From a virus: a stretch of 46,667 nucleotides of DNA. The stretch covers positions 1-46,667 of IMG/VR virus record IMGVR_UViG_3300032893_000002; one strand, written 5' to 3'. Below, piece after piece: positions 13,719-29,639 of this stretch (its first letter is position 1; each line of letters opens with the position of its first letter). Both the position numbers and the translations under genes were made by a program. The notes under the pieces were generated by a model. The model was not told the origin of the DNA. It saw only the letters and a program-made list of their open reading frames with translations, and did no database searches.

Positions 13719-13740
13719 GGTAATTAGTATAATTATATAT
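13719..13740 (+). promoter_or_regulatory. conserved motif CGGTAATTAGTATAATTATATAT (putative promoter)
   Basis: Second copy of the 10820-10840 motif; TATAAT at 13728-13733, ATG of a small ORF 5 nt downstream. Confidence 0.5.
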
Positions 13741-14292: not shown

Positions 14293-14312
14293 GGAGAACG
14301 CAGGAGATTTTT

Positions 14313-14495: not shown

Positions 14496-14497
14496 GT

Positions 14498-14668
14498 ATG
14501 AGTAAAATAGTCGAATATACTGTTTACATAGATGACGATTCGCTATCTGTTTTTGCCGATCGTTTTGACTACTCTATTTCAGGAAATAGTATTACGTTTT
14601 ATATTGGAGATGATACAGTTGCGCTCTTTAATATGACTTATACAAGAGGCATCGTGAGAACAGGTTAG
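14498..14668 (+). CDS. hypothetical protein (56 aa)
   Basis: Trimmed to MSKIVEY... with GGAGCAGGAGAATAAGT SD. Confidence 0.4.
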   Translation: MSKIVEYTVYIDDDSLSVFADRFDYSISGNSITFYIGDDTVALFNMTYTRGIVRTG

Positions 14669-14728
14669 GAATAATTTTTAGTAACCCTTGAAAAATCACA
14701 CAACTTTTAATATAATACATATCCCGCA

Positions 14729-15490
14729 ATGCACAAACCTCTAGGCATTAAAAATTACGGAAGCATCGGCCATCTACCTCAGAGCCGTCTGGGACCAGGA
14801 GATCATAAGGTTCCAGACGGACAGGCCGCTATATGTATTGAACAAACAAGAGATGAGTATGATAGAGTAATTGTTACAGAAAAATTAGACGGTTCGAATT
14901 GTGGTGTAGCTTTACTTGATGGACAGATTTTAGCTTTAGGTAGAGCAGGATATTTAGCACAATCCTCTCCTTACGAACAGCATCAACTATTTGCCTACTG
15001 GGTTAGACAAAATGAAGCAAGTTTTCGTAAAATTCTACGAGAAGGCGAACGATGCGTCGGCGAATGGCTGGCGCAAGCACATGGAACTAAATACGACTTG
15101 CCTTGTCCGCCGTTCTGCGTTTTTGATATTATGAAAGGACGTGAGCGCGCTCCGTGGAGCGAAGTATTAGAACGTTGCTATCCTTTAGTTAATACTGTTC
15201 CAGTATTACATGATGGAGGAGCCGTAGCGATAGAAACAATTATGCATGATTTAAATGCTGTTCCAAGGGCGTATGGACAATGCGATGAAAAAAGATTTTA
15301 TGGTTGGTTTGGTGCGATGGAAGAAGTAGAAGGAGCTGTTTGGCGAGTTGAAAGAAAAGGAAAATTTGACTTTATGGCGAAGTATGTCAATCCAGATAAG
15401 CTTGATGGGAAGTACTTAGAAAAAGTAAGCGGACAGCCGCCTATATGGAATTGGAGACCAAATGCTGAAGATAGTGTTATCAATTTATAA
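14729..15490 (+). CDS. ATP-dependent polynucleotide ligase-like nucleotidyltransferase (RNA ligase-like, 253 aa)
   Basis: Covalent nucleotidyltransferase motifs in order: I VTEKLDGSN (KxDG), III CVGEWL, IV EGAVWRVERKG, V KYV; size fits small RNA-ligase family (PF09414-like) rather than DNA ligase. Confidence 0.55.
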   Translation: MHKPLGIKNYGSIGHLPQSRLGPGDHKVPDGQAAICIEQTRDEYDRVIVTEKLDGSNCGVALLDGQILALGRAGYLAQSSPYEQHQLFAYWVRQNEASFRKILREGERCVGEWLAQAHGTKYDLPCPPFCVFDIMKGRERAPWSEVLERCYPLVNTVPVLHDGGAVAIETIMHDLNAVPRAYGQCDEKRFYGWFGAMEEVEGAVWRVERKGKFDFMAKYVNPDKLDGKYLEKVSGQPPIWNWRPNAEDSVINL

Positions 15491-15653
15491 GGACGATAAT
15501 GCTCAACCGCTGTTTCAAATTCGTGGAGATGCTTTTGAATCATTATGTTGGGTGGCAGAAGATGATAAAAAAGGGATTAAAGATGATGGAAGGGTATTGA
15601 AAAATCTCGGTTATTGGCCAAATCTACCGCGCAAAGAGGAAAATAAGGATTAG
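15462..15653 (+). CDS. hypothetical protein (63 aa)
   Basis: ATG ORF with GGAGA SD, overlaps previous gene end by 29 nt. Confidence 0.35.
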   Translation: MLKIVLSIYKDDNAQPLFQIRGDAFESLCWVAEDDKKGIKDDGRVLKNLGYWPNLPRKEENKD

Positions 15654-15656
15654 TAT

Positions 15657-16055
15657 ATGGGATCGAGAGCGCCAAAACCTACAAAGAGGGAAGTTGACGC
15701 TGTACTTGCGCAATTAGAAAAATTAGATGTTCCTCCAGTAGATTATTCACAACGTTGCCTTACAGATGGTTCTCCTATAACTTCAGATCATAAAGAAATT
15801 GATCCTATTACAAAACAACAGAAAGACTATATAGTTCTGACAGCAGAGGAACGTGCTAAAGGATTCGTTCGTCCAGTTCGAGATACTTACACACATCTGA
15901 AGTGCAATTCTGATACAACAATGGGCAGAGCTATTGCAGAAACCTACGCGCGTGAACCAAAATTTTATAGCGGAACATTCTGCTGTACTTGCCAACAACA
16001 TTTCCCGCTAGACGAATTTGTCTGGAAGGGTACAGAAGAGATACTAGGAACATAG
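15657..16055 (+). CDS. hypothetical protein (132 aa)
   Basis: ATG ORF; Cys cluster FCCTCQQH near C-terminus. Confidence 0.45.
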   Translation: MGSRAPKPTKREVDAVLAQLEKLDVPPVDYSQRCLTDGSPITSDHKEIDPITKQQKDYIVLTAEERAKGFVRPVRDTYTHLKCNSDTTMGRAIAETYAREPKFYSGTFCCTCQQHFPLDEFVWKGTEEILGT

Positions 16056-16156
16056 AGTATGAGACTGAGACGTAAGTAGGCGGCAGGTTCCGCACTCAAC
16101 CAAAGCCGGTAAATTCTCAGATATAATCCGGCAGAATTAAGCAAAAAGTAAGAAAA

Positions 16157-16516
16157 ATGGAGAAAATAGCATTAATGGACTTTAATTTCTATCATGAAGA
16201 AGCATTAAAATCGGCTGTTTATCCGAATATTGGTAATAATCCGCATTATCCGCTGATGGGTTTGGCAGGAGAAGTTGGTGAAGTAGCAGAGAAGATTAAG
16301 AAACTATGGCGCGATAAGAACCAATCTAAAGGTGCAGAATTCTCTGCAGAAGATAAAGAAGCTATAGCACTAGAACTTGGCGATGTACTTTGGTATGTAT
16401 CAGCTCTGGCTAGAGAAATAGGTTTGCCATTAGAAAAAGTAGCATCTCTAAATTTGGCAAAGTTGGGTTCTCGCAAACAGAGAAATAAAGTACATGGTTC
16501 GGGGGATAATAGATAG
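16157..16516 (+). CDS. mazG: MazG-type nucleoside triphosphate pyrophosphohydrolase
   Basis: Canonical MazG motifs LAGEVGEVAEKIKK (E-x-x-E-x-x-E) and ELGDVLWYVSALA. Confidence 0.8.
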   Translation: MEKIALMDFNFYHEEALKSAVYPNIGNNPHYPLMGLAGEVGEVAEKIKKLWRDKNQSKGAEFSAEDKEAIALELGDVLWYVSALAREIGLPLEKVASLNLAKLGSRKQRNKVHGSGDNR

Positions 16517-16813
16517 ATGATGACTACAGAGAGCATGCTCAAGCAATTTGAAGAGTTAACAAAGAAGATGGTCGAAGTTGTTACAGCGAAGAATAAAGAT
16601 TACTCACGCGGGGAATCTCCATTTAAAAATCTTGTACGACACGGAACTTATGGAATAGTTGTTCGAATGGACGACAAGATTTGCAGATTAGATTCATTAA
16701 CAAGTCCGAAATATGGTGGGGAACCAGCAATAAAATCGGAATCAATTGAAGATACGGCGTTAGATTTGGCTATATATAGCTTACTTCTGATACTGTTACA
16801 TAGAGATTCATGA
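16517..16813 (+). CDS. hypothetical protein, possible second all-alpha NTP-pyrophosphatase-like protein
   Basis: Weak MazG-like helix IEDTALDLAIYSLLLIL; low-confidence functional guess. Confidence 0.3.
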   Translation: MMTTESMLKQFEELTKKMVEVVTAKNKDYSRGESPFKNLVRHGTYGIVVRMDDKICRLDSLTSPKYGGEPAIKSESIEDTALDLAIYSLLLILLHRDS

Positions 16814-16983
16814 AAGACATTGCGTATTATCCAGCTCCAAATCAGTATTTTTACGATAGAAGAGCTAAAATTAAAGAGGAAAATCGGTGTTCTAAATGCG
16901 ATGGCTTCGGATATATTTTAGTTGAGGAGCATAGCTGGGAATTATGTCTAGCATGCTATGCGACAGGACAACAGATTGACTGA
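16810..16983 (+). CDS. small zinc-ribbon protein (57 aa, below track cutoff)
   Basis: Hand translation MKDIAYYPAPNQYFYDRRAKIKEENRCSKCDGFGYILVEEHSWELCLACYATGQQID; ATGA overlap with previous stop. Confidence 0.35.
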   Translation: MKDIAYYPAPNQYFYDRRAKIKEENRCSKCDGFGYILVEEHSWELCLACYATGQQID

Positions 16984-17167
16984 CTACGAACTTGGACGGA
17001 TTGATGCTACGCGAGACATTCTTAAGGAGTGGCTTAAGTTCCGGTATAGTATAAATGGACGTCAGCCTTTTATGTTCGACCGTCGAGATATAATCGATCC
17101 AGGAGCAAAAGGTTTGATAGATGATAACTTTTTTCCAAGAGGAAATCCTAATGCTCAAGACGACTAG
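16958..17167 (+). CDS. hypothetical protein (69 aa)
   Basis: ATG ORF; overlaps the 57-aa mini-ORF so one of the two may be spurious. Confidence 0.3.
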   Translation: MRQDNRLTDYELGRIDATRDILKEWLKFRYSINGRQPFMFDRRDIIDPGAKGLIDDNFFPRGNPNAQDD

Positions 17168-17522
17168 ATGTACTCACTGCAGCGCAGAATTTACAGATCA
17201 AGAATTAGAGAATGTAACAAGTTGTCCGAAATGCGGAACAACTGGAATTCCATGTTTAATTGCAGACGATGTGTTGTTAAAAATAAATTGGCATGAACTT
17301 CGTATTCTCGGAATTTGGGCAGATAATTATGCTAAAGCAGCACATATTGAAGACAGTTCTGCAAAAGTAATTGCAGCTATTTTAGCACGTTGTGAGAAGC
17401 AATTTCCTGATAAAACGCCCCTAACTTTGGGAGGAGAAATAAGAAAAATACAAGAAGAACATCCAGAAATCAGTTTAATGCGTGGAGGAAAGATAGAAGT
17501 TTCTTCGAAACGAGTAAATTAG
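17151..17522 (+). CDS. hypothetical protein with N-terminal zinc ribbon (123 aa)
   Basis: Trimmed to MLKTTRCTHCSAEF...CPKCG with AGAGGAAATCCTA SD. Confidence 0.45.
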   Translation: MLKTTRCTHCSAEFTDQELENVTSCPKCGTTGIPCLIADDVLLKINWHELRILGIWADNYAKAAHIEDSSAKVIAAILARCEKQFPDKTPLTLGGEIRKIQEEHPEISLMRGGKIEVSSKRVN

Positions 17523-18098
17523 ATGAGAAAAGGTGGTTGGATTACTACATATTCCGGCAAGAAGTTTTGGCCATTAGATCCAAAAGCTGAAGATATTTCT
17601 ATTTATGATATTGCGCATGCTTTATCTTTAATATGTCGATTCGGAGGACACTGCAGAAATTTCTATAGCGTAGCGCAGCATAGTATTCTCGGAGCGCAGC
17701 ATATTTTATTAAAAGAAAAAAGCAACGCGTTAGCAGCTTATGAATTTCTTTTTCATGATGCATCTGAAGCTTATCTATGTGATCTTTCGCGGCCAATTAA
17801 ACACGACTCTCTATTAGGTAGTTTATATAAAAAGGCTGAGAAAAAGTTGGAGCAAGCTATTGCAGAGAGATTTAATGTTAGCTATCCGCTTTCACAAATA
17901 TGTAAAGATACAGATATGAGTATGCTCTTAACAGAAGCTCGTGATTTAGGATTAGATACAACGGGCTGGATTGTTGCACCGCAAGATCGTTGTTTTGAAG
18001 ATAAAATTGTACCTTGGTCTCCTGTCGAGTCTGAACAAGGTTTTTTACGCATGTATGATTCTCTTTCTGCGACTTTGTTTATTCAAGCAGTAGTCTAA
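17523..18098 (+). CDS. HD-domain phosphohydrolase
   Basis: HD motif FLFHDASEAYLCD preceded by conserved His (IAHALSLICRFGGH) in the order expected for HD superfamily (YfbR-like nucleotidases). Confidence 0.55.
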   Translation: MRKGGWITTYSGKKFWPLDPKAEDISIYDIAHALSLICRFGGHCRNFYSVAQHSILGAQHILLKEKSNALAAYEFLFHDASEAYLCDLSRPIKHDSLLGSLYKKAEKKLEQAIAERFNVSYPLSQICKDTDMSMLLTEARDLGLDTTGWIVAPQDRCFEDKIVPWSPVESEQGFLRMYDSLSATLFIQAVV

Positions 18099-18116
18099 TT
18101 CTACAGGAGATATTAT

Positions 18117-18647
18117 ATGGCCGAAAGAATGCAATTGCCCACTACGCGTCAAAGTATTGTTCATCATTTTGCTGTTGGCGAATATGAAGGTTATTTAACA
18201 GTTGGTTTGTATGAAACGGGACTTCCAGGCGAAGTATTTGTGAAGATGGTAAATAAAGATACAACAGTCTCAGGCTTTATGGATAGTTTTGGATTAGCCG
18301 TGTCACTTGCACTTCAGCATGGTGTTCCATTAAAATTACTTTGCGACAAGTTTAGCTATATTCAATTTGATCCAAAGGGAGAAACAGCGAATAAGAAACT
18401 TCCGACGGCGAAATCTCTTATAGATTATTTATTCAGATGGATGGATTTATACTTTATTAAAGGCGATGTCTCTGCGTTGGAAAATTATATTAAACCGGAA
18501 GTAAAGAAATCAATCAAGCACGTCGTTACAAAGTCTTCTGGAATAGGATCGGATGCGCCTCCCTGTAGACAGTGTGGAGAATTGATGCAGCCAAATGGAA
18601 GTTGTCATGTTTGTAAATACTGCGGAGAAACTAGTGGTTGTTCATAA
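18117..18647 (+). CDS. hypothetical protein with C-terminal zinc ribbon (176 aa)
   Basis: C-terminal CRQCG...CHVCKYCG; no other motif. Confidence 0.45.
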   Translation: MAERMQLPTTRQSIVHHFAVGEYEGYLTVGLYETGLPGEVFVKMVNKDTTVSGFMDSFGLAVSLALQHGVPLKLLCDKFSYIQFDPKGETANKKLPTAKSLIDYLFRWMDLYFIKGDVSALENYIKPEVKKSIKHVVTKSSGIGSDAPPCRQCGELMQPNGSCHVCKYCGETSGCS

Positions 18648-18655
18648 GGAGATAT

Positions 18656-19573
18656 ATGGCAGAAGTAGTAAAGAAAGAAGATGGGAAAGTAGCAGAAGTA
18701 AAATCTATTATAAGCGATAAGCCAGCTACTGCTACTATACAAAAGTCCGAAACTAAGTTAAGTGAAATTAAAGATGGTACTGCAGTAGCAAAGACATTTA
18801 AAGCTGAACGAGATCCAAAATCGACATACATCTATGCCGGTGTTCAGGAAGGTATGCGTGCTGCGACTGAAACTCCCTCCAATGCTAAACCAGTTGTCGA
18901 TGTTGTACCACAAGATACAGAAAAAATAGCTAAGAAAGTACAAAAATCAATAGTTCCAAAAGTCGAACAAAAGAAGAAGCCAGAAGTTCCAACATTGACG
19001 ATTGGTAAAGATATTTTCTCTGTCGATTTATCTGCATTGGCAGAGTATGTAGCATTCGATGTTGATGCGCATCGTTACTTTACGCAAGAGAATACATATA
19101 AAATTCTTGCACACCTTTCAAAACAACTGCCGAAAGGATCTAAAGTTGCAGATCTCGGAACTGCGTGTGGTTCCTCTGCGCTTGCCTTTGCATCAAATCC
19201 GGATGTTCAAGTATCTACTATTGATTCCAGGAAGTTGCTGCCACAAAACTTAAAGAATGCCTCTTCTCTTCCAAATGTATCTTTTATTCAAGGAGATATT
19301 GCAAACTATATTAGTATATATGCAGATGCTAAGATTATATATTTGGATGTTCATCCGCATGACGGCATTCAAGAAAGTAAAATATATAATGAATTAATTG
19401 CTAGCGAATTCAAAGGTATTTTAATTCTTGATGATATACATGCATTTGAAGGACTTAATTCGTTTTGGAATACAATTTCAAGGAAGAAGATTGACGCAAC
19501 AGAATATGGACATCATTCAGGAACAGGAATTGTCGTATTTTCTCCGACTGATTTAGATGTTGTTATTTCTTAG
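18656..19573 (+). CDS. class I SAM-dependent methyltransferase with N-terminal extension carrying a capsid-like peptide
   Basis: Rossmann motif I VADLGTACGSSALAFA, acidic IIYLDVH and ILILDDIH strands; ATAAGGAGATAT SD; N-terminal aa 49-76 KAERDPKSTYIYAGVQEGMRAATETPSN nearly identical to aa 125-152 of the putative capsid protein. Confidence 0.6.
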   Translation: MAEVVKKEDGKVAEVKSIISDKPATATIQKSETKLSEIKDGTAVAKTFKAERDPKSTYIYAGVQEGMRAATETPSNAKPVVDVVPQDTEKIAKKVQKSIVPKVEQKKKPEVPTLTIGKDIFSVDLSALAEYVAFDVDAHRYFTQENTYKILAHLSKQLPKGSKVADLGTACGSSALAFASNPDVQVSTIDSRKLLPQNLKNASSLPNVSFIQGDIANYISIYADAKIIYLDVHPHDGIQESKIYNELIASEFKGILILDDIHAFEGLNSFWNTISRKKIDATEYGHHSGTGIVVFSPTDLDVVIS

Positions 19574-19600
19574 AAGTAGCCAACGAATAAAAATATTTAC

Positions 19601-19630
19601 TTGACATTATCAGGTTTGGCAATATATAAT
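19601..19630 (+). promoter_or_regulatory. sigma70-like promoter
   Basis: TTGACA (19601-19606) followed 17-18 nt later by TATATAAT (19623-19630), upstream of ORF 19671. Confidence 0.5.
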
Positions 19631-19670
19631 TCAAGATTGTAAAGTTCCATCCCTATTTTCAGGAGTAAAA

Positions 19671-19904
19671 ATGTCAACTGAGCATCTCGATTTCTGGATT
19701 ATAGTAGACGAAATTAAGAAAGTCGTTATTATAACTAGACGCGACGACTTAGCCGATTTCTTAGTGACGTATTCACATCAAAATGCTAAGAAAAGTAAAA
19801 TCTATTTCAATCCGACAGAATTAAATCAAGCGATCGAGACGTATAAGTGGCACGGATTTTCAATCCTAGCCGACGAGAAGGAATTTGGAGAAATGAGTAA
19901 TTAA
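19671..19904 (+). CDS. hypothetical protein (77 aa)
   Basis: ATG ORF downstream of consensus promoter; CAGGAGTAAAA SD. Confidence 0.45.
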   Translation: MSTEHLDFWIIVDEIKKVVIITRRDDLADFLVTYSHQNAKKSKIYFNPTELNQAIETYKWHGFSILADEKEFGEMSN

Positions 19905-19905
19905 A

Positions 19906-20148
19906 ATGGGAAAAACTCCAAGTAGGGATATTAGAGAACTCGGTCCGGGAGATTTTGTGCGAGTTGGGCAAAAACTTCTGAAAATTAAGAGCGTGTATGG
20001 TGTTAACTGGGATGGCACGCTCGTACCGGTCAGTAAAGGCGGCTATGGTTGTATAACAGAAACTGACGAAGATGTTTCTATGTGGAGAGCAACTGGGTAT
20101 TTTAAGAAAGAAGATTTAGATGAGAAAGGAAATTTGATCGGCGGGTAA
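19906..20148 (+). CDS. hypothetical protein (80 aa)
   Basis: ATG ORF, 1-nt spacing. Confidence 0.45.
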   Translation: MGKTPSRDIRELGPGDFVRVGQKLLKIKSVYGVNWDGTLVPVSKGGYGCITETDEDVSMWRATGYFKKEDLDEKGNLIGG

Positions 20149-20372
20149 TGAATCCATCTACACATCCTGAAAATTTTGATTTATGCCGTTATTGCGGTGA
20201 TCCTTATTGTGATAGATTAATAGAAAAATCAGATGGTAGTATTCGTTCAAATCACGATACGGGTTATAGATTTATACCCGCAAAACATATAGTAAAACCA
20301 TTTGCAACAAAATTTACAGCTCCTCTCAGAGATAAACATTTAATGCTTGCAAAACGTAATACTCTAAGTTGA
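20148..20372 (+). CDS. hypothetical protein with CxxC..C motif (74 aa)
   Basis: ATGA overlap with previous gene; CRYCGDPYC. Confidence 0.4.
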   Translation: MNPSTHPENFDLCRYCGDPYCDRLIEKSDGSIRSNHDTGYRFIPAKHIVKPFATKFTAPLRDKHLMLAKRNTLS

Positions 20373-20423
20373 TCACGTAATTCTCTTGACAAAGTTTTAA
20401 CTTTCCCTTATTTTCATTAGTAA

Positions 20424-20966
20424 ATGTCTCGCCTTCTTCTAAGTATCTGCGCTCTAATTTCTATCTCTTTAATTGTGCTCGCTCCTATTTTATTAGGAGA
20501 TGCGCATCCGCGTCATCATATATTTGGAGATACATTTGATGTTCAGCCCCTAATTAACGCGAGCGGGCAAGTCATCCAGATGAACATCAGTGTTTTTAGT
20601 GGAGGTCTTGTAAAAGGCTCTTACAACAGTAAGAAGTATGGCGGTATTTGTAACACAAATGCCCCACATTGTTATGGAACTGATGGGCTGGGCAATTGGC
20701 GTTTTCTTTTCACTGGCCAGCATTTTTGTGTTAATACTTGTACATATACAGCTACAGGCGATTTGATAGTAAATAAGCCGATTCAATTACCGGATGGTTC
20801 TACGACTCTGCAGCTTTACGCTATACTATATGGGACTTATGTCAGCGATTCAGGTGTTGTAAGAGATAACGTGATGGCATATTACAATTCATATACAGAC
20901 CCTGCAGTTGACAGCACGACAGCGCTTGCTTACGGCGGTCTAACAATAGTATTTCAGGATAATTAA
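20424..20966 (+). CDS. secreted or membrane-anchored hypothetical protein (180 aa)
   Basis: N-terminal hydrophobic helix LLLSICALISISLIVLAPILLG; Gly/Thr/Tyr-rich beta-type composition; TTGACA-like promoter upstream at 20386. Confidence 0.45.
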   Translation: MSRLLLSICALISISLIVLAPILLGDAHPRHHIFGDTFDVQPLINASGQVIQMNISVFSGGLVKGSYNSKKYGGICNTNAPHCYGTDGLGNWRFLFTGQHFCVNTCTYTATGDLIVNKPIQLPDGSTTLQLYAILYGTYVSDSGVVRDNVMAYYNSYTDPAVDSTTALAYGGLTIVFQDN

Positions 20967-21071
20967 GCAAAGGTGAGATTATGGCAACAAAATGGCCAAT
21001 CACAACGCATTGACGCATCCTTAACAATATAAAATTACAGCTTGACATTTGAACATACCTATATTATCTTT

Positions 21072-21108
21072 ACAAGTAAGTAATATTACTTGCTACTTAC
21101 TTGTACAA
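21072..21108. promoter_or_regulatory. nested palindromes upstream of terS
   Basis: ACAAGTAAGTA(21072-21082)...TACTTACTTGT(21094-21104) inverted repeat flanking self-complementary AGTAATATTACT, followed by TTGTACAA palindrome ending at the terS ATG. Confidence 0.4.
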
Positions 21109-21843
21109 ATGCGCGTTAAACTACAAGAACAGCCTATACAAGCGCGGCCGGTAAAGTCGCTCCCGGCTCCAGCCCATCCATCTGAGACAAGTAAAAGTAT
21201 AGAAAAAACTGAGAAAATAGATGCGTTATCTAAGAAATTAGGGTTAACGCCGAAGCAAAAACTCGCCGCAGACTATTACCTTCAAAACTTCAATAAGTAT
21301 AAAGCTGCGATTAAAGCAGGTTATTCAGAGTCTGTAGCAAACTGCGCAGAAGATAATATTTTTAGTGTTCCTGCTGTTCGCGACTACATCAATCAAAAAA
21401 TAAATCGACGCTTTAGAAAAGAAGAATTTTCAGCAGAACAAGTATTGATGCAGATTGAAAATGCGGCATCAGCAAATTTGCTTGACTATGGTAATGTTAC
21501 AGAAGATGGCGGATTTGAGTTGGATCTTACGAAAGTAGATAGATATTTAGCAGCAAACATTCAAGAGTACTACATCGATGCTGCAGGCAAACCTAAGATT
21601 AAGTTAATTGACAAGAAATGGGCACTTGAGAAGAAAGCTCAGCTATTGAAGATGTTTGAAACATCTCAAGGTCCAGGCGCCGAGAGCGAGCCTTTGACAA
21701 TTCAATCGCTCGATGCAATAGTACAGAAAGTTGTTACAAATAATACAATAAACCAAAATATTACAGTTAATGTTGGAGCAAGGGAAGCTCAGCAGTTTTC
21801 TCAAATTTTAGAAGGCAGCGATGATAGTTTATCTAATTCATAA
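21109..21843 (+). CDS. terS: terminase small subunit
   Basis: Trimmed from track ORF 21049..21843 to MRVKLQ...; contains the LTPKQKLAADYY motif typical of phage small terminase subunits; lies immediately upstream of terL with only a homing endonuclease between. Confidence 0.55.
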   Translation: MRVKLQEQPIQARPVKSLPAPAHPSETSKSIEKTEKIDALSKKLGLTPKQKLAADYYLQNFNKYKAAIKAGYSESVANCAEDNIFSVPAVRDYINQKINRRFRKEEFSAEQVLMQIENAASANLLDYGNVTEDGGFELDLTKVDRYLAANIQEYYIDAAGKPKIKLIDKKWALEKKAQLLKMFETSQGPGAESEPLTIQSLDAIVQKVVTNNTINQNITVNVGAREAQQFSQILEGSDDSLSNS

Positions 21844-22486
21844 TATACAAAACGAAAAAGTCTATGTTGGTATTACGAAGCATCAGTTTAAGCATAGATG
21901 GGATGAGCATTGTGATGCAGCATATAAGTATAATATGCAGTGGCATCTTTCAAATGCAATTCGTTTGTATGGAAAAGATTCTTTCTATCATGAAATCTTA
22001 GCTGTTGTTGCTACAGAAGAAGAAGCCAAGATATTAGAAAGGCTTTGGATTATAACTTTGCGTTCTTTTGATTCAGAATTTGGCTATAATATGACTTATG
22101 GAGGAGACGGCGTAAATCCGAGTTTTTTACGCGGAACTATCAGGAAAGAAATTTATGGAATTGAATCAGAAAAGCAAAGAGGCATAGCCATAAGTCTTGC
22201 AAAAAAAGGCAAACCAAGTTGGAAAAAAGGAACAACAAATATTGAACTTTATGGAGAAATAAAGGCTGCAAAAATTGCAGAGCAGGTATCAAAAACAAAG
22301 ACAGGTAAATCGAACATAAAACGAATAGGAAAGCCGGGTGCTCTTCTTGGAACTATTAGGAAATTAGCTTACGGAGAGCAATCCGAATTTGCAAGAGCAA
22401 GAGCTATAAGTGCAGCTAAAAAAGGAAAGCCTTCTCCCCGAAAAGGAAGAATCTTTCCGAAACAGATTGTAGCTGCATCATTATAA
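21821..22486 (+). CDS. GIY-YIG homing endonuclease with NUMOD-like C-terminal repeats
   Basis: N-terminal IYLIHNIQNEKVYVGIT...HRWDEH GIY-YIG core; repeated KKGKPSWKKGT / KKGKPSPRKG DNA-binding modules; paralog of 33779..34417; inserted between terS and terL. Confidence 0.85.
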   Translation: MIVYLIHNIQNEKVYVGITKHQFKHRWDEHCDAAYKYNMQWHLSNAIRLYGKDSFYHEILAVVATEEEAKILERLWIITLRSFDSEFGYNMTYGGDGVNPSFLRGTIRKEIYGIESEKQRGIAISLAKKGKPSWKKGTTNIELYGEIKAAKIAEQVSKTKTGKSNIKRIGKPGALLGTIRKLAYGEQSEFARARAISAAKKGKPSPRKGRIFPKQIVAASL

Positions 22487-22547
22487 AAAGTTAACAGGCC
22501 GGCAGATTGCCTTTTACTGCACAGATGTAGGTTATGGAATATTGTCT

Positions 22548-22712
22548 ATGAATATTTTTAATTTTTTTGTTGTTAATCGAGAAACAGGGGAAGAGATTGC
22601 ATTAGGCGATAATCCAGAATGCTCAATAGAGCAGGTTCTGTATATGATGTCACAAGGAACTACCCGAGAAAATTACTCAGAAAAATGGGCTTTCGAAATT
22701 AGAGAAGTATAA
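22548..22712 (+). CDS. small ORF (54 aa, below track cutoff)
   Basis: Hand translation MNIFNFFVVNRETGEEIALGDNPECSIEQVLYMMSQGTTRENYSEKWAFEIREV; no SD. Confidence 0.2.
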   Translation: MNIFNFFVVNRETGEEIALGDNPECSIEQVLYMMSQGTTRENYSEKWAFEIREV

Positions 22713-22723
22713 GAGCTAGTATA

Positions 22724-22975
22724 ATGGGAATTTGCGTCATCACACATAATCAGGCAAAGAAGTGGGAAGATACAGACGTTAGGCCGAATTGTTCACATCA
22801 TTTTCATATATCTGCAAAACAGGCATATATTGCCGTAGGCGAAGATAATGCGAATTGGTTCGATGGCCCATCTTCAAGAGCAATAGTTTTTCATGATTGC
22901 GTATTAAGATATGAGTGGCAGGCTAGAAAAAGTATAGGGTTTAACGTTTTGCAGATGGTACCAATTAGAAAATGA
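22724..22975 (+). CDS. hypothetical protein (83 aa)
   Basis: ATG ORF whose ATG lies inside a TAGTATAAT motif; stop overlaps terL start. Confidence 0.4.
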   Translation: MGICVITHNQAKKWEDTDVRPNCSHHFHISAKQAYIAVGEDNANWFDGPSSRAIVFHDCVLRYEWQARKSIGFNVLQMVPIRK

Positions 22976-25908
22976 GTATATCCCCTAGAGATCGAAGAAT
23001 TGCGGATACAGTACTAGATCCAGTTAAGTTTGCTAAACTATACTTCGATATTGATTTGTGGGGAAAGCAGAAAGAGATTTTAAACTCAATTGCTGTTAAT
23101 CAACGTACGGCTGTTAAGAGTTGCCACTCAAGTGGAAAATGTGTTGCTGCAGATGAGGTTCTAACGTTAGCAGACGGTTCGAGAATAAAAGCTAAAGATC
23201 TTATTGGCAGAAGTTTTGCATTGCCTACATTAGATGAAGAAGGACATGTTGTTGCTGCAGCAGCAAAAGCAGAATTTAATGCAGTTGAAGAAGTATTTAT
23301 AATAACTACGGAATCCGGAAAGCAGATTGTAAGAAATGCGGAACACCCGCTTTGGCGCGGCGAACGGCTGCCGTGGAACTTAGGTGAGAAAGATACAAAA
23401 TTAACGTTCGGACCCGGCAAAAATTTTGGCGCAAAGAAATTCAATTTGCCAAAAAACATTAGTTGGAGTGATGTAAGAGGAACAATATTTCCCAGAGGAT
23501 GGACTTCAGTTGCGGAGTTAAAAGAAGGCGATTACGTAGCTATGGCTGCTTCATTGCCAGTTTTTGGCTCAGAAGAAATATGTGAAGCAGAATTAAAAAT
23601 TCTTGCCTATTTAATAGGTGATGGGTGCGTTTCTCAGGACGGGGCTCCTGGGTTTACTCAACAAGAAAATAAACAATTAGAAGAATTTCGTTTTTGTGTA
23701 GAAGCAATAGGCTGTAGGCTACATAGACATAACGATCTGGACTACTCAGTTTACGGACAAGGAACGAAACACGTAAAAAGAAAAAATCCTGCATCTGAAT
23801 TAGTAAGAAAGCATGGATTAGCTGGTAAAAAATCAAAAGATAAATTTGTTCCAGAAGTAGTGTTCTCTTTAACAAAAGAACAGACAGCAATTTTTTTATC
23901 GCGCTTATTTGCAACAGATGGTTGGGCAGAGATAAGGGGAATTTATTATTCTAGTACTTCATTTCGTTTAGTACAGGATATTCGAGAACTTCTTCTTCGT
24001 TTTGGAATTATTGCTGATATTAGCAAGAAAAGTACATTTTGGCTATATAAAGGAGTAGAAAAAACAGGCATAGCCTACGATCTTAGCATAAACAGAGCTG
24101 CCAATATAATAGCGTTTTGCGAAGAAATCGGAATTTACGGAAAAGAGCAACAGACTGTAAGAGCATTGGCAAATGCTCGAGAATCTATTGCACGCTGTTC
24201 TGCAGAACATTTTCACAAAACTGGAACTTCGGCACGAACAAAGACGAATTTTGGAAGAGGCCAGCATAGCAGTTTATGGAGAATGAAAACTGCTCCAAAA
24301 GGCACATACTGGGAAAAGATTAAATCTATTGAATATAGAGGTATAGAAGAAACAGTAGCAATAGAAGTTCCAGACTACGGCACGTTTTTAACACAATTTT
24401 GGGAGCATAATACATTTACATCAGCACTAGCAACACTTTGGTTTCTTGCGTCGCATCCAAAAGAAGCAATTGTAATTACAACTGCTCCTACTTATAATCA
24501 GGTTCAGAAGCAGCTATGGGGCGAAATTAAGTCGTTACTAATTAAGAGTAAGCTGAAGTGGCCAGAGCCATCGTTAACAGAATTAAGATTACATCCGAAG
24601 AGATATGCAACTGGATTAACAACATCTGTTACTAAAGGCGATGAGGGCGTTAAGTTTCAAGGTTTTCACGCCGATGACATTCTAGTAATATTAGACGAAG
24701 CTCCAGGCGTAGAGCCAAAGATTTGGGAAGCTATTGAAGGCGCACGAGCTGGTGGCAACGTAAAGATTCTTGCTATCGGAAACCCAACAATTGCTAGCGG
24801 ACCGTTTCACGATGCGTTTGTAAATAATCGTTCCGGCTGGAATTGCATATCAATTAGCGCATTTGACACACCGAACCTTCAAGGTATAGAATTAGAACAG
24901 CTTATTGATCCAAATCATCCAAAATATCTTACGGATGCGCAATTAAAAGAGAATCAGCAGAGTTTTTTAACAACAAGATTTTGGGTTAAAGAAAAGTATT
25001 TTGAATGGGGTCCAACACATCCTGCATGGGAGACTCGTGTTCTTGGCTGCTTTCCATCGCAGAGCGATGATGCTTTATTCGGGCTAATGTACCTAGAGAA
25101 AGCACGAGATAGTGATCTTAAAGCATCGCCAGCGGACAAAGTTGTAGCAGGATTAGATGTAGCTGGACCAGGAGAAGATGAAACAGCGTTAGTAATTAGA
25201 AAAGGTCCGGAGATTCTATATAGTAATGCTTGGGCAACTGCTGATCCGAGAGGCAAAGTTGTTGCGGCATTGAATCAATACAGAAGTGAGTTATCTGCTG
25301 TTAATGTGGATAAGTTAGGAATTGGATGGGGAATGTACACTCACTTAAAAGAGTTGGGATTCCCAGTTGTAGCTATTAATATTACAGAGACAAGTACTGA
25401 TCCGGAACAGTTTTTTAACTCACGCGCTGAATTTTGTTGGGGATTTAGACTTAGACTTCAACAAGGACAAGTAAGCGGCCTTCTAGATGAAAAGACAATT
25501 GGGCAATTAGCTGGAATGCGATTTAAGCAGAATGCTAGAGGACAAACAGAAATTGAATCTAAAGATGCTGCATTTAAACGCGGTGTACATAGTCCAGATA
25601 GAGCTGAAGCTGTTTTGTTAGCTTTCGCAGAGCGAAATAAATCATATAGCGCACTTGAGTATTACAAAGGAGTTATGAGTAGTATGGAGAAAGCACAAGC
25701 AGCTTTAATGATGAAGCCAGCAATGCCAGACAAACCAAAGGAATGTCCTACATGTCGAGCCGTTTGCGTTGTACAGCTTGCGAGTGGGTTTCGTTGTAAT
25801 CAGTGTGGATGTCAATTCGGCGGAAAGGGAAGTTCAATCGGACAACCTAATCAGCGTACAGAGTACTTACAAAAATTGGATGCTGGTAGACGTAACTTAT
25901 GGAAGTAA
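22972..25908 (+). CDS. terL: terminase large subunit, interrupted by an intein (exteins 22972..23139 and 24412..25908)
   Basis: Spliced sequence gives Walker A KSCHSSGK|TFTSALATLWFLA; Walker B ILVILDEAPG; C-terminal nuclease-like region and terminal CxxC cluster; intein flanked by Cys1 and His-Asn / +1 Thr. Confidence 0.85.
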   Translation: MSISPRDRRIADTVLDPVKFAKLYFDIDLWGKQKEILNSIAVNQRTAVKSCHSSGKCVAADEVLTLADGSRIKAKDLIGRSFALPTLDEEGHVVAAAAKAEFNAVEEVFIITTESGKQIVRNAEHPLWRGERLPWNLGEKDTKLTFGPGKNFGAKKFNLPKNISWSDVRGTIFPRGWTSVAELKEGDYVAMAASLPVFGSEEICEAELKILAYLIGDGCVSQDGAPGFTQQENKQLEEFRFCVEAIGCRLHRHNDLDYSVYGQGTKHVKRKNPASELVRKHGLAGKKSKDKFVPEVVFSLTKEQTAIFLSRLFATDGWAEIRGIYYSSTSFRLVQDIRELLLRFGIIADISKKSTFWLYKGVEKTGIAYDLSINRAANIIAFCEEIGIYGKEQQTVRALANARESIARCSAEHFHKTGTSARTKTNFGRGQHSSLWRMKTAPKGTYWEKIKSIEYRGIEETVAIEVPDYGTFLTQFWEHNTFTSALATLWFLASHPKEAIVITTAPTYNQVQKQLWGEIKSLLIKSKLKWPEPSLTELRLHPKRYATGLTTSVTKGDEGVKFQGFHADDILVILDEAPGVEPKIWEAIEGARAGGNVKILAIGNPTIASGPFHDAFVNNRSGWNCISISAFDTPNLQGIELEQLIDPNHPKYLTDAQLKENQQSFLTTRFWVKEKYFEWGPTHPAWETRVLGCFPSQSDDALFGLMYLEKARDSDLKASPADKVVAGLDVAGPGEDETALVIRKGPEILYSNAWATADPRGKVVAALNQYRSELSAVNVDKLGIGWGMYTHLKELGFPVVAINITETSTDPEQFFNSRAEFCWGFRLRLQQGQVSGLLDEKTIGQLAGMRFKQNARGQTEIESKDAAFKRGVHSPDRAEAVLLAFAERNKSYSALEYYKGVMSSMEKAQAALMMKPAMPDKPKECPTCRAVCVVQLASGFRCNQCGCQFGGKGSSIGQPNQRTEYLQKLDAGRRNLWK
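23140..24411 (+). mobile_element. intein (424 aa) with LAGLIDADG homing-endonuclease domain inside terL
   Basis: Begins CVAADEVLTLADGS (block A, Cys1), block B T..H (NAEHPLW), LAGLIDADG motifs LAYLIGDGCVS and LSRLFATDGWAE, ends ...FWEHN followed by Thr; in-frame with terL. Confidence 0.85.
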
Positions 25909-25931
25909 ATTTTATGGAAGGAGCTTGCACA

Positions 25932-26120
25932 ATGCGTCTAGAAAAGCGCGTAGAACTCCTGCCTCCGTTTTGTCCTCTTCACAAAGACGAAGACGGAAAT
26001 CCTATTCCAGCTCCATGTCTATTTTGTTTAGTTCCAGAAGTTTACGATATTGTATATTCTACAGGAGATCATGAGCGTGAAATTATATATTTCACTGCTA
26101 GTGATGAAAATTCGAATTAA
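25932..26120 (+). CDS. hypothetical protein (62 aa)
   Basis: Trimmed to MRLEKRVEL... with GGAAGGAGCTTGCACA SD. Confidence 0.4.
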   Translation: MRLEKRVELLPPFCPLHKDEDGNPIPAPCLFCLVPEVYDIVYSTGDHEREIIYFTASDENSN

Positions 26121-26122
26121 TT

Positions 26123-26815
26123 ATGGATATTCCGAAGTGTAGTGTCTACTCTGTCTACTTCAAAAATATCGGCCAGTCTGTTTTAGACTATCAGAGAAAA
26201 TGCGTCGAATTTTTTCTTCCAGAAGGATGGACTTTTAAACAAGTTTTAAATTCTGAGAAGGATGTTTTCGAGGATGGTAAGCTCGTATACCCGCATGCTG
26301 CTATGCTGCGTGAATGTGTTGAAACTGCTGAGAATGATGCTATTATATTTCTAGATATCGACTGCATACCTGTAAATAAATTAGCTTTTCCAATGCTTGC
26401 TATGGGAGCTAAAGACGGAATACTAACAGGAGCAATTCAGCGAGCAAATCATATTCAGAATGACGAGCATTTGTATGTTGGTCCATTCTGCATGTCGTTT
26501 TCGAGACAGAAGTATTTTGAATTTGGAGCTCCTACTTTTAATGCTACAGCGCGTGGGGATATAGGAGAAGAATTAACGTATAGATGGCATGAACGAGATG
26601 GGATGGTAGCATATTTTTGGCCTTCACAGGTGGAAAAGCCGCTTTGGAAACTCTTTAATGATGTTGATTTTGGGTTAGGAACAACTTACGATAATCTATT
26701 TTATCACTTTTTCTGTATTCGCGAGGAAGCTGCTCAAAATATTTTTGTTGAAAGATGTAAGATGTTCTTAGAAAGATTTGAAGAAGAGAAGATAGAAATT
26801 ATAGCTGCAGTTTAA
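26123..26815 (+). CDS. putative nucleotide-sugar transferase (GT-A-like), 230 aa
   Basis: DxD-type motif AIIFLDIDCIP after a beta-strand, as in GT-A folds; weak call. Confidence 0.3.
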   Translation: MDIPKCSVYSVYFKNIGQSVLDYQRKCVEFFLPEGWTFKQVLNSEKDVFEDGKLVYPHAAMLRECVETAENDAIIFLDIDCIPVNKLAFPMLAMGAKDGILTGAIQRANHIQNDEHLYVGPFCMSFSRQKYFEFGAPTFNATARGDIGEELTYRWHERDGMVAYFWPSQVEKPLWKLFNDVDFGLGTTYDNLFYHFFCIREEAAQNIFVERCKMFLERFEEEKIEIIAAV

Positions 26816-26832
26816 TAAAAGGAGATAAAAGA

Positions 26833-27093
26833 ATGTCGACGCCCGCGATGGCAACAGAAGTTTTTATTGCAGAAGCAGTTCCAAACACAGCTGCTTCACA
26901 ACCGCAACTTATGGATGGCAATACTAACTTAGCAAATACGCCGCAAGCAACAGGGTTGATTACGGTACCGCAATCGCCTTCTGGTACTTCGACTACAAAC
27001 ACAGGACGAGCACTAGAAGCAACAGCGACGTATTTAGCATCAAAGTTGAATATTTTGAATGTTGGTACAACACCTCCGCCAGCACACAATTAA
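26833..27093 (+). CDS. hypothetical Thr/Ala/Pro-rich protein (86 aa)
   Basis: AAAGGAGATAAAAGA SD; low-complexity T/A/P-rich sequence. Confidence 0.45.
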   Translation: MSTPAMATEVFIAEAVPNTAASQPQLMDGNTNLANTPQATGLITVPQSPSGTSTTNTGRALEATATYLASKLNILNVGTTPPPAHN

Positions 27094-27112
27094 TTAGAGG
27101 TCTACCCTGTCT

Positions 27113-27868
27113 ATGTCAGAGAATCCGTTAAAGGTACTTCAACCGCGTCATGCTGAATTAAACATGTATGATGTAATGAAAGGTACAATTCAAAGATTTT
27201 TTGCTGTTGTTGCAACAGAGCCAATTACGTATTCAGGCGAGACGATCGAACCTAAACCCTTAATCGTCTCGCCTGATATATTCAGAGGTACAGCATGCCC
27301 AGAGATGTGCGGCGCGTGTTGTGTTCGCGGAACATTAGATTTTCTTCCTGGCGATCCTAGACCAAAAGAAGCTACACAAAGATTTGTAGAAGTAAATGGA
27401 AAGAAAATTGAGATTTGGTCGGATATGCAAGAAGATAACGCCGATAGATGGTGTCGGCATTTGAATTTGAAAAATGGACGATGTGGCATTCATTCCGAAG
27501 CATATTATCCTTGGTTATGTGATTTTGCATTAATCAATGTAAAACATTTTAAGGATAAGTATTGGCTTGGAACTACGAAATTTTCAAGAACATGGAATTT
27601 TAGAAAGATTACAGATACAGACGAAGAATTTAAAGCGCGGAAAGCTGCACATAAGCCCGGTGCGCTATGCAGCATAGAACCTTTTGAGCCAATATCTGAA
27701 CAGACGGTTGCTAATACAAGGAGAAAGCTGAGAGGACTAGAGAAGTGGATTAACCATTTCCAAATTGCGAATCGGATGAAAAGTATTATGGCTTGGGCAA
27801 ATATGGATCCGATTCCTACAAAGCCTTTATATCTAGGAATTAAATCAGAACGAGGAGTTTTAATTTGA
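27113..27868 (+). CDS. CxxCxxCC (YkgJ/FliB-like putative Zn/Fe-chelating domain) protein
   Basis: CPEMCGACC matches the CxxCGxCC signature of the YkgJ/FliB family; additional Cys/His downstream (WCRH, RCGIH). Confidence 0.4.
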   Translation: MSENPLKVLQPRHAELNMYDVMKGTIQRFFAVVATEPITYSGETIEPKPLIVSPDIFRGTACPEMCGACCVRGTLDFLPGDPRPKEATQRFVEVNGKKIEIWSDMQEDNADRWCRHLNLKNGRCGIHSEAYYPWLCDFALINVKHFKDKYWLGTTKFSRTWNFRKITDTDEEFKARKAAHKPGALCSIEPFEPISEQTVANTRRKLRGLEKWINHFQIANRMKSIMAWANMDPIPTKPLYLGIKSERGVLI

Positions 27869-29517
27869 GTAATACACCTGTCACCCCTGTCGAAAGAAAA
27901 GTTACAATTGTTGTATTAGCTAAGTACAAAGAAATTTTTCAAGGATTTGTTGAGTCAGTAGAGAAGATAGCTCCAAATTTTCAAAAAGTTTTAGTAGCTG
28001 ATGGAACAGAGGTACTTGAAGTATTAGAAGCTTTGCCAGCAAAAGCAAAAAGCACCTGGACAGTAATTCCTGGACCAGAGAAATTTGCTATGGCAGGGAA
28101 CGGAAATCTAGGACTTAAAGCTGTTCCTTCTGATAGCGATATACTATATGTTGGCGACGATGTTAGATTTCTACATGAAAAAACTGTAGAACGCTTACAA
28201 GAGTATGCTTATAGAGAACCAACTATTGGCATACTTTCTCCTAGATTATTAGGAAGAGCAAGCAATGCGTTAGCGAATCCTTCAGCAGACATTACGTTTA
28301 TTAGACCTATGGAAATGTGGTTTCCATGTGTTTATATCAAACGTGAACTGATTGAAAAAATAGGATATTTAGATGAAAGGTTTAATGATTTTGGATCTGA
28401 TGACCTTGACTACTGCATTCGTGCTCAGATTGCGGGCTATAAATTGGCTGCAACTTCGTTTGTTACTGTTCAACATGAAATGAGTGTTGAGGGAGGACCT
28501 ACAACATTCGTTAAGAAGTTAGGTGTTGCGCAGTGGCAACAGCAGCAAGCTAAAGCACTAGAAAAATTGCGTGAGAAATATGAAGTTAGCATTCCTATAT
28601 TCGAGCGCGCACTTAGATCAGGCGATAGTAAGCTGCTTGTTAAAAAGACGATTGAAGTTATAGATCAAACGAAGAAGAAGCCGCCTACACCAGAGGAAGC
28701 TAAGAAAATTCTTGAGAAACGAAGTATATACATCGCAACGCCCGCTTATGGCGGGATGATGACTGTTAATTATGTTACTTCGTTGTTAGGCATTAATGAT
28801 ATTTGTAGGAATTACAATGTTAAGCTTGAATATTCGTTCGTTTACAATGAAAGTTTAATTACGCGTGCTCGGAATAAGATGGTGTTCGACTATCTTAATA
28901 AGAGTAGCTGTACGGATTTTTTCTTCATTGATGCTGATATATCTTTTGATCCAAAAGATATTGTAAGTTTACTGTTTCATGACGAACCAATTATCGGATG
29001 CCCTTGCGTTAGGAAGAATTTAAGATTTGATCGTGTTGCTGCGGCTGTAAAACGGAACCCCGATAAAGAATATACAATTGATGAAATGGCTCGGATGTGT
29101 GGAGAATTCGTAGTTAATTTTCCTCCGACAGGCGCGCCTCAGATGATGAATTTGGGACAGTTGATAGAAGTACAGGATGTAGGAACCGGAATAATGCGTG
29201 TTAGACGTGAAGTCTTCGAGGAGATTGAGAAGAAATTTCCGGATCGCTATTACGTGCCAATGCAAGGTGAAGGCGAAGAAACTCAGCCGCATTATATGTT
29301 CTTTCAATCATGTATAGACGCAGAATCAGGAAAATTTAATCCAGGCGGATATCCGCATTACATTGCAGAAGATTTTGCATTTTGTAGATTAGCTCAGAAA
29401 GCAGGCTTTAAGATCTACTTAGCGCCTTGGATCAAAAGTGACCATATGGGCGCCCTCTTGTTTAAGGGAGACCTCGAGATGGTAGCCAAGGTGGGAGGAG
29501 GCCTCAGGCGCGCATGA
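27865..29517 (+). CDS. two-domain glycosyltransferase (GT2-like N- and C-terminal modules)
   Basis: N-domain: YVGDDVRF (DxD) and FGSDDLDYCIRAQIAGYKL; C-domain: FFFIDADISFDPKD (DxD) and AEDFAFCRLAQKAGFKIY; both pairs follow the GT2 pattern D-x-D ... ED-x-x-x-C/R-x-x-x-x-G-x-K-I. Confidence 0.55.
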   Translation: MSNTPVTPVERKVTIVVLAKYKEIFQGFVESVEKIAPNFQKVLVADGTEVLEVLEALPAKAKSTWTVIPGPEKFAMAGNGNLGLKAVPSDSDILYVGDDVRFLHEKTVERLQEYAYREPTIGILSPRLLGRASNALANPSADITFIRPMEMWFPCVYIKRELIEKIGYLDERFNDFGSDDLDYCIRAQIAGYKLAATSFVTVQHEMSVEGGPTTFVKKLGVAQWQQQQAKALEKLREKYEVSIPIFERALRSGDSKLLVKKTIEVIDQTKKKPPTPEEAKKILEKRSIYIATPAYGGMMTVNYVTSLLGINDICRNYNVKLEYSFVYNESLITRARNKMVFDYLNKSSCTDFFFIDADISFDPKDIVSLLFHDEPIIGCPCVRKNLRFDRVAAAVKRNPDKEYTIDEMARMCGEFVVNFPPTGAPQMMNLGQLIEVQDVGTGIMRVRREVFEEIEKKFPDRYYVPMQGEGEETQPHYMFFQSCIDAESGKFNPGGYPHYIAEDFAFCRLAQKAGFKIYLAPWIKSDHMGALLFKGDLEMVAKVGGGLRRA

Positions 29518-29639
29518 TATTGGTTTATTTAGTACATTCAACTTCTAGTGGAAAGTATTATGTAGGCTGGACTAGTAAAACTTTCGCTGAGCGTTGGTCT
29601 GTTCACTTAGACTCAGCAAAACATGGAGCAAAATGGTGA
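29514..29639 (+). pseudogene. decayed GIY-YIG homing-endonuclease remnant (41 codons)
   Basis: Translates MILVYLVHSTSSGKYYVGWTSKTFAERWSVHLDSAKHGAKW*, matching the N-terminal GIY-YIG core of the two intact paralogs but truncated. Confidence 0.55.

Follow-up and report, generated by a model that had tools for sequence, protein, structure and literature searches.

A probable LAGLIDADG intein in the Walker A motif of the large terminase of an uncultured phage

The large terminase subunit (TerL) is the commonest intein host in mycobacteriophages, and inteins that separate the invariant Lys of its ATPase motif from the nucleophilic Thr represent what has been called the "classic" P-loop insertion (Kelley et al., 2016, mBio, PMC5050341). 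Mycobacteriophage inteins at other TerL sites were found to splice, and two of them cut the intein-less alleles of partner phages (PMC5050341). Inteins in general prefer P-loops, and terminases are among their listed hosts (Novikova et al., 2016, PMC4760082). Here we describe an insert in the terL gene of the IMG/VR virus record IMGVR_UViG_3300032893_000002, which was analysed over its full length of 46,667 nucleotides (the window). A first-pass annotation made from the sequence alone had proposed that this insert is a LAGLIDADG intein placed between the Lys and Thr of the Walker A P-loop. It had also described the terminase P-loop as a known hot spot of intein insertion, which is borne out by the mycobacteriophage survey of Kelley et al. 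(2016).

The terL open reading frame runs unbroken through 978 codons and includes, in frame, an insert of 1272 nt or 424 codons (Table 1). Its translation reproduced exactly the boundaries that had been proposed: the insert begins with Cys (TGT; CVAADEV...), ends in ...FWEHN, with His-Asn as its last two residues, and is followed directly by a Thr codon. Removing the insert in silico joins the flanking sequences to give ...AVKSCHSSGK↓TFTSALATLWFLAS... (the arrow marks the insertion point here and below) in a protein of 554 amino acids and 61.5 kDa. The Walker A motif restored in this manner had been termed perfect; the actual sequence is S-x4-G-K-T (SxxxxGKT), a variant of the textbook G/A-x4-GKT. 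The GC content is 38.5% for the intein versus 41% for the host gene.

The same uninterrupted protein exists in nature. The best match in a search of 5.8 billion proteins, P0001, is 554 amino acids long, is identical to the flanking terminase sequence at 546 of 554 positions (98.6%), and lacks exactly residues 57-480 of the precursor; across the junction it reads ...SSGK↓TFTS.... The two contigs that encode P0001, L001 (ENA, 6.6 kb) and L050 (JGI, 13.6 kb), are colinear with window positions 12078..27832, about 15 kb, at 89-96% nucleotide identity. At terL the DNA alignment with the window is interrupted cleanly, to the base, at both splice junctions, and the empty site in L001 and L050 has the sequence GTTGTCACTCCTCAGGCAAG↓ACATTTACATCAGCATTAGC. 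A second relative that is 84% identical, P0003, is likewise intein-free. The same holds for 45 of 45 relatives in IMG/VR (47-60% identity), each of which has the continuous peptide VKACHSSGKT, and for all 120 of the listed protein relatives of P0001. An insert homologous to this one does occur, at the identical position, in TerL homologs that are more remote, P0002, P0005 and P0006 among them. Given a natural, 98.6%-identical protein of 554 residues from which exactly these 424 residues are missing, the sequence comparison confirms that the segment is an insertion and not a terminase domain or a chance pattern. The first-pass annotation had suggested comparing terL alleles of relatives and had held that relatives in which the 424 residues form an integral terminase domain would speak against an intein; the IMG/VR and listed relatives display the opposite pattern. 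The placement between Lys and Thr was matched both by the empty site of P0001 and by the P-loop junction in the structural model described below.

The residues that carry out splicing were examined in an alignment of 86 inteins, this one included (85 homologs for the +1 residue). Cys1 is conserved in 85 of the 86 sequences, as is the block B His69, and the terminal His423 and Asn424 are each present in all 86. The +1 residue, Thr in this protein, is Thr in 70 and Ser in 15 of the homologs. A T..H motif that had been reported for the insert does not occur anywhere in it, and block B reads N66-A-E-H69; the Thr position of block B is thus Asn66 here, as in 69 of 86 sequences, with Thr in 15. The Asp position of block F (407) is Ala in this intein and in 75 of 86. 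Position 414 is Gly, the sole departure from the family majority among the positions compared, with His in 55 of 86. Gly414 was considered as a sign of a defective block F and discounted, because some inteins found in DnaA proteins on chromosomal contigs also lack His at this position and carry Glu or Gln instead.

An AlphaFold2 (AF2) model of the insert, computed from the 86-sequence alignment, has a mean predicted local distance difference test score (pLDDT) of 90.4 and a predicted template modelling score of 0.89. Only two loops, residues 81-110 and about 354-385, are poorly defined, and both are lineage-specific. Foldseek searches of the PDB with this model gave full-length matches to TliVMA (7qsu, E 3e-18), PI-PfuI (1dq3) and PI-SceI (1vde), and partial matches of the HINT domain to mini-inteins (6frg, 4o1r, 1mi8), including those of Ssp and Npu DnaB; the model and these matches both indicate a HINT fold assembled from the N- and C-terminal segments. 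At the sequence level, a phmmer search of PDB sequences aligned both termini of the insert with the Nostoc punctiforme DnaB mini-intein 4o1r. The best NCBIfam match was PRK07773, a model of intein-containing DnaB (139 bits), and models of intein-bearing RNR, GyrA, RFC and RecA proteins were matched as well. The empty-site allele, the conserved Cys1, His69, His423-Asn424 and Thr+1, and the HINT and LAGLIDADG folds all uphold the proposed intein. Judged by conserved residues and predicted structure, the insert is very probably a full-length class 1 intein with a nested LAGLIDADG homing endonuclease, and competent to splice.

The family to which this intein belongs is not confined to terminases. 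Seventy-nine of the 85 homologs are located at GK↓C...HN↓T/S of a Walker A motif, and the hosts at this GK↓T/S site include diverse TerLs, DnaA (GLGK↓TH), DnaC/IstB-like ATPases (GTGK↓TH) and DnaB (SMGK↓T). Dozens of bacterial DnaA (P0041-P0068) and DnaC/IstB-like (P0047-P0071) proteins have an intein 45-48% identical to the present one at the Walker A GK↓T. The inteins in DnaA have in common with the present one an R-N-x-x-H block B and a TVAIEVP block F, and several are encoded on contigs of 0.3 to 4 Mb (up to 3.96 Mb). DnaA is an essential protein, and since members of the family interrupt it, inteins of this type must be able to splice. By analogy, their occurrence in DnaA is the best indirect reason to regard the non-canonical Asn of block B and Ala of block F as harmless in the terminase intein too. 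DnaA was not mentioned as an intein host in the intein survey literature that we compared. The six other family members (P0070, P0072, P0073, P0077, P0081, P0084) are found elsewhere, at ...[KR]F or KV↓C...HN↓SGKH in proteins of about 900-1150 amino acids, which may reflect an ectopic move to another target.

A rough neighbour-joining tree of the inteins, calculated without support values and used only as a lead, placed the window intein beside that of P0002, from the same TerL clade. The DnaA and DnaC clades are nested among TerL-borne inteins in this tree, and the DnaB inteins form a distant branch or outgroup. For TerL relatives, the identities of intein and flanking terminase were 55/52, 52/46 and 44/37%; the intein identity thus tracks that of its host, which fits a long association with the terminase clade combined with sporadic loss or gain. 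As a tentative proposal, which we consider possible and not the likeliest outcome, a single lineage with 45-55% identity across hosts may have spread to the GK↓T/S site in three or more P-loop ATPase families that are not orthologous (phage TerL, bacterial DnaA and DnaC/IstB-like loaders), and the inteins of DnaB would be a more distant branch. Phage terminases would then serve as a reservoir from which inteins jump ectopically into replication genes essential to the cell, with the short coding motif GGN-AAR-ACN that these genes share as the guide. If this is true, the window and L001/L050 would constitute a natural intein-plus/minus pair with which the mobility of inteins from terminases to cells could be measured.

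Both LAGLIDADG blocks that had been noted in the insert, ILAYLIGDGC and LSRLFATDGW, were found, and the Pfam model LAGLIDADG_3 matched residues 248-331 with 58.5 bits (cutoff 22.5; E 8e-16). The residues expected of an endonuclease are retained: D161 (78 of 86 sequences), D260 (85 of 86) and the block D Lys, K235 (84 of 86). None of the four endonuclease blocks is disrupted, and the domain was modelled at pLDDT >95 as a pseudo-dimeric alpha/beta LAGLIDADG fold for which Foldseek returned I-DmoI, I-Tsp061I, the endonuclease domains of PI-SceI and PI-PfuI, and also TliVMA. The empty sites of relatives are candidate targets. Over 20 nt on either side of the insertion point, the reconstituted site of the window is identical to that of L001/L050 at 32 of 40 positions and to that of L003 at 35 of 40. 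The two empty sites of L001 and L003 also agree at 35 of 40, and the similarity of sites is therefore independent of intein status. For a mycobacteriophage TerL intein that is active, 75% identity of the partner site was enough for cleavage (PMC5050341).

The immediate surroundings of the insertion point were inspected for traces of homing. Across the whole gene, differences between the window and L001 are most concentrated in the 12 nt at positions -12 to -1, where 6 of 12 differ, all of them synonymously, and the Ser codon at -3 is AGY in two intein-plus alleles and TCA in two close intein-minus alleles. These features were rejected as a co-conversion or immunity signature of recent homing, because AGY at -3 also occurs in about half of 44 more distant intein-free relatives and because site identity does not depend on the presence of the intein.

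The host protein was recognised as a large terminase from the flanking sequences. When spliced, these match the PHROG family phrog_2, terminase large subunit (E 2.4e-28), and annotated terminases from Arthrobacter, Streptomyces and Bacillus phages align with them in tblastn searches without a break at the junction. The spliced TerL has no Pfam match at E ≤ 0.1, including to the terminase families (Terminase_1, 3, 6 and GpA), and a PDB sequence search with it returned no match, so that a fold search was needed. An AF2 model of the intein-free P0001 (pLDDT 87.4) contains a strand (45-50), a loop (51-55) and a helix starting at K56 in canonical P-loop geometry, and Foldseek matched the model to Sf6 gp2 (E 6e-20), T4 gp17, HK97 TerL, D6E TerL and nuclease-domain structures. 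The phrog_2 match, the model and the fold matches agree with the architecture of a TerL, an ASCE ATPase with Walker A and B motifs followed by a C-terminal RNase H-like nuclease. On this sequence and model evidence, the host protein is a member of a divergent TerL clade that is unassigned in Pfam and recognised by PHROGs and fold only. In the model, the intein junction would fall where the P-loop helix starts, within the strand-loop-helix of Walker A.

A megablast search of terL against deposited phages gave no match, the closest protein matches of the portal and of TerL are only 31-36% identical, and a scan of genome contigs yielded a single relative, 57% identical, in an Acidobacteriaceae metagenome-assembled genome. 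The main bearing of the insert is on annotation: the product of terL should be described not as a terminase of 978 aa but as a precursor with an intein, from which an enzyme of 554 aa is made. A separate feature of this TerL clade is a C-terminal CxxC...CxxC zinc-ribbon extension (window 25690..25830; precursor residues ~907-953; C501, C504, C518 and C521 in P0001). Its four Cys residues are nearly invariant in 67 relatives, and in the AF2 model the extension forms a small pair of beta-hairpins. Some relatives are labelled "ribosomal protein L37AE" by JGI, and a zinc ribbon is an unusual appendage for a large terminase.

Several observations weigh against an intein that is functional in both splicing and homing. 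Of the intein hallmarks that the first-pass annotation had proposed to look for, blocks A, B, F and G could all be placed, but the curated hidden Markov models of the splicing domain stayed just below their cutoffs: Pfam PF14890 (Intein_splicing) scored 23.7 bits against a cutoff of 35.8 and TIGR01445 (intein_Nterm, residues 1-71) 21 bits against 24.5, both sub-threshold even though their E-values were 5e-5 and 5e-4. The Asn in block B, where most inteins have Thr, the Ala at the Asp position of block F and Gly414 are likewise unfavourable, but all are family traits or tolerated variants. In addition, the nearest intein relative is only 55% identical, and comparison of the window with its relatives revealed no signature of recent homing, such as a co-conversion tract, around the insertion site. 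Present endonuclease activity is therefore less certain than splicing, although we lean towards an endonuclease that is currently active. The sub-threshold scores would also fit an insert that does not splice, either an integral terminase domain or a HINT-like insertion of the bacterial intein-like type, or a terL pseudogene or an assembly chimera. These explanations are extremely improbable. The 98.6%-identical TerL lacks exactly this segment, the 978-codon frame is intact with all splicing residues present, and dozens of independent contigs, as well as essential DnaA genes, show the same architecture. To our knowledge, bacterial intein-like domains never occur at strictly conserved catalytic residues with an obligatory +1 nucleophile.

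The remaining alternatives accept splicing and differ in what the intein does for the phage. If the endonuclease were no longer active or had no susceptible targets, the intein would be a passenger inherited vertically, at a late stage of the homing cycle. The parallel identities of inteins and flanking terminases fit such long co-divergence, and the low identity of the closest intein, the missing co-conversion signature at the site and the similar GC content of intein and host gene point in the same direction. On the other hand, the acidic residues of both LAGLIDADG motifs and the Lys of block D have been preserved, as has each of the four endonuclease blocks, in a confidently modelled domain, and the sporadic presence of the intein, which is missing from the relatives with 98.6% and 84% identity, is what ongoing gain and loss would predict. 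We therefore consider the passenger possible but doubtful. A different proposal is that the intein now serves the phage as a conditional switch. Splicing, and thereby the packaging ATPase, would be gated by redox state or some other signal, and a disulfide linking Cys1 to C51, the extein Cys at position -6, could be one means. According to the model the P-loop would be inactive until the insert splices, C51, six residues upstream of Cys1, is conserved in at least 90% of the TerL clade, and conditional splicing of P-loop inteins is discussed in PMC5050341 and PMC4760082 and named in the titles of PMC4513877 and PMC5790916. However, C51 is equally conserved in intein-free relatives and is thus not there for the intein, a near-identical phage manages without any intein, and no sequence feature points specifically to regulation. 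A regulatory role is therefore quite unlikely, and we favour an intein that splices and, less certainly, homes by means of its endonuclease.

Class 1 inteins splice by an established pathway that consists of thioester formation, formation of a branched ester, cyclisation of Asn and an O-to-N shift. We infer splicing and DNA cleavage for the present intein, with all four chemical steps modelled on that pathway. Translation of terL would give a 108.9-kDa precursor which, because its P-loop is interrupted, could neither bind nor hydrolyse ATP, and in which the two HINT halves (residues 1 to ~138 and 386-424) would fold together. Cys1 would attack the peptide bond between Lys56 and Cys57 to form a thioester, from which the N-extein would be transferred to the hydroxyl group of Thr+1, the Walker A Thr, yielding the branched ester. 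Cyclisation of Asn424 with the assistance of His423 would release the 47.5-kDa intein, and the O-to-N shift would leave TerL at 61.5 kDa, its SCHSSGKT loop restored. The released intein would be a site-specific endonuclease acting on the intein-less terL of co-infecting relatives, where it would cut the DNA that encodes the P-loop, and recombinational repair off the intein-bearing allele would copy the intein into the cleaved gene (homing).

Table 1. Features of the terL locus and of the neighbouring mobile elements (positions in the window; residue numbers count from Cys1 of the intein unless stated otherwise).
Feature	Position	Strand	Details
terS, small terminase subunit gene	21049..21843	+	Just upstream; Pfam Terminase_2 E 1.5e-19; phrog_51
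Free-standing GIY-YIG homing endonuclease gene 1	21821..22486	+	Between terS and terL; Pfam GIY-YIG 40.2 bits; phrog_314
terL precursor open reading frame	22972..25908	+	978 aa, 108.9 kDa; includes stop codon; frame unbroken across 978 codons
N-extein (terminase sequence 5' of intein)	22972..23139	+	56 codons; ends in ...KSCHSSGK, the first part of Walker A
Intein	23140..24411	+	424 aa, 47.5 kDa; Cys1 to Asn424; precursor codons 57-480
HINT splicing domain, N-terminal part	23140..23553	+	Approx. residues 1-138; block A (CVAADEVLTLADG); block B (GKQIVRNAEHPLW, residues 60-72, nt 23317..23355)
LAGLIDADG homing endonuclease domain	23554..24198	+	Approx. residues 139-353; from Pfam LAGLIDADG_3, column conservation and Foldseek
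LAGLIDADG motif 1	23599..23628	+	ILAYLIGDGC, residues 154-163, D161
LAGLIDADG motif 2	23896..23925	+	LSRLFATDGW, residues 253-262, D260
HINT splicing domain, C-terminal part	24295..24411	+	Residues 386-424; blocks F and G, ...TVAIEVPDYGTFLTQFWEHN; His423-Asn424 at nt 24406..24411
C-extein (terminase sequence 3' of intein)	24412..25908	+	Thr+1 (24412..24414) is the Walker A Thr; then Walker B (ILVILDEAPG), nuclease domain and C-terminal CxxC...CxxC zinc ribbon
GIY-YIG remnant	29514..29639	+	N-terminal, truncated; 41 codons, MILVYLVHSTSSGKYYVGW... to stop; tblastn E 6e-6 to intact copy
Free-standing GIY-YIG gene 2	33779..34417	+	After prohead-protease-like gene; Pfam GIY-YIG 45.6 bits; phrog_314 E 1e-24

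The intein has mobile neighbours (Table 1). Two free-standing GIY-YIG genes and a decayed copy had been noted in the same module; Pfam and PHROGs identified both genes, and tblastn recovered the 41-codon remnant. The two intact copies are 51% identical over 97 aa of their catalytic domains. These elements had been counted as three classes of selfish DNA, but only two classes are present, the intein and the GIY-YIG genes (two plus the remnant). An Rfam scan of the window revealed no group I or group II intron, and tblastn searches of the window for further inteins gave no second intein.

The near-identical relative represented by L001 and L050 lacks both the intein and GIY-YIG gene 1. A stretch of 720 nt in the window (21772..22491) replaces 51 nt of L001 (3499..3549) at the 3' end of terS. 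The GIY-YIG insertion extends over the end of terS, where it substitutes for the final ~17 codons, and the small terminase subunits of the window phage and of L001/L050 consequently have different C-termini. The 638 nt between GIY-YIG gene 1 and the intein are the best-conserved region, with 95% identity to L001 compared to about 91% elsewhere. A single transfer that brought in the GIY-YIG gene together with the intein was considered and is unsupported, because this intervening segment is the most L001-like. The window and L001/L050 are thus a natural pair of near-identical phages. They differ in the intein, in the GIY-YIG gene beside terS and in a small number of short segments, outside terL, that have been replaced. 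With this pair one could study homing, what an intein in the packaging motor costs in fitness, and the possible seeding of cellular P-loops, such as that of dnaA, by phage terminases.

One of the replaced segments lies at window positions 20275..21021 (L001 2352..2751), where a 180-aa protein with an N-terminal hydrophobic segment (20424..20966) takes the place of a 117-aa protein with a weak VbhA match. No RNR catalytic body was found near window positions 18117..18647 (L001 105..635). Downstream of terL, Pfam and PHROGs identified a portal gene and the prohead-protease-like gene. The packaging and head module also includes sugar-modification genes, located between terL and portal (26123..29517) and again past the head genes (38011..44234), that encode GT2-type glycosyltransferases, a nucleotide-sugar epimerase, a cupin, a PLOD-type glycosyltransferase and a CxxCxxCC protein; they may serve in glycosylation of the virion or of DNA. 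A distant relative, L002, has a similar sugar cluster directly after terL (13306..23016). The left 9 kb of the window (1..9000) have a higher GC content (0.44-0.53), opposite strand skews and only small minus-strand open reading frames with no Pfam match, and presumably constitute a divergently transcribed early region. Within it, overlapping open reading frames on both strands at 310..1020 suggest an unusual composition.

Compared with described systems, the closest in location are the mycobacteriophage TerL1-a inteins, which also occupy the Lys↓Thr site of Walker A in the ATPase domain of TerL, and in both settings phages with and without the intein co-exist. The present TerL differs in having no Pfam terminase family and in coming from an uncultured phage of ~39% GC, and splicing and cleavage, which were shown for mycobacteriophage inteins at other TerL sites, are predicted here. 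Among 50,697 deposited phage records searched by tblastn, none had a match to the intein with more than about 30% identity, and the inteins of mycobacteriophages are thus no close relatives of it. The DnaB site b inteins of Actinobacteria and Cyanobacteria (PRK07773; PMC4760082) share the Walker A position (SMGK↓T) and the class 1 plus LAGLIDADG architecture. In contrast, they reside in another host protein, keep T-x-x-H, the block F Asp and ...VHN, and are the outgroup in the intein tree.

More similar in sequence are the metagenomic P-loop inteins of DnaA and DnaC/IstB-like proteins (for example P0048, P0062, P0068 and P0052), which are 45-48% identical to the window intein and share with it R-N-x-x-H, TVAIEVP, ...FWEHN, the GK↓T site and the LAGLIDADG motifs; they differ in residing in cellular replication ATPases and in forming tight clades of their own. 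PI-SceI, PI-PfuI and TliVMA have the same HINT domain with a nested LAGLIDADG endonuclease (Foldseek E 1e-11 to 3e-18), and the VMA inteins also split an ATPase. These proteins are only 10-14% identical to the present intein and have archaeal or eukaryotic hosts; the present intein in turn has the lineage-specific, poorly modelled loops at residues 81-110 and 354-385. Overall, the intein is new in sequence, its nearest relative being 55% identical, and ordinary in architecture, insertion site and presumed mechanism, with no new principle involved.

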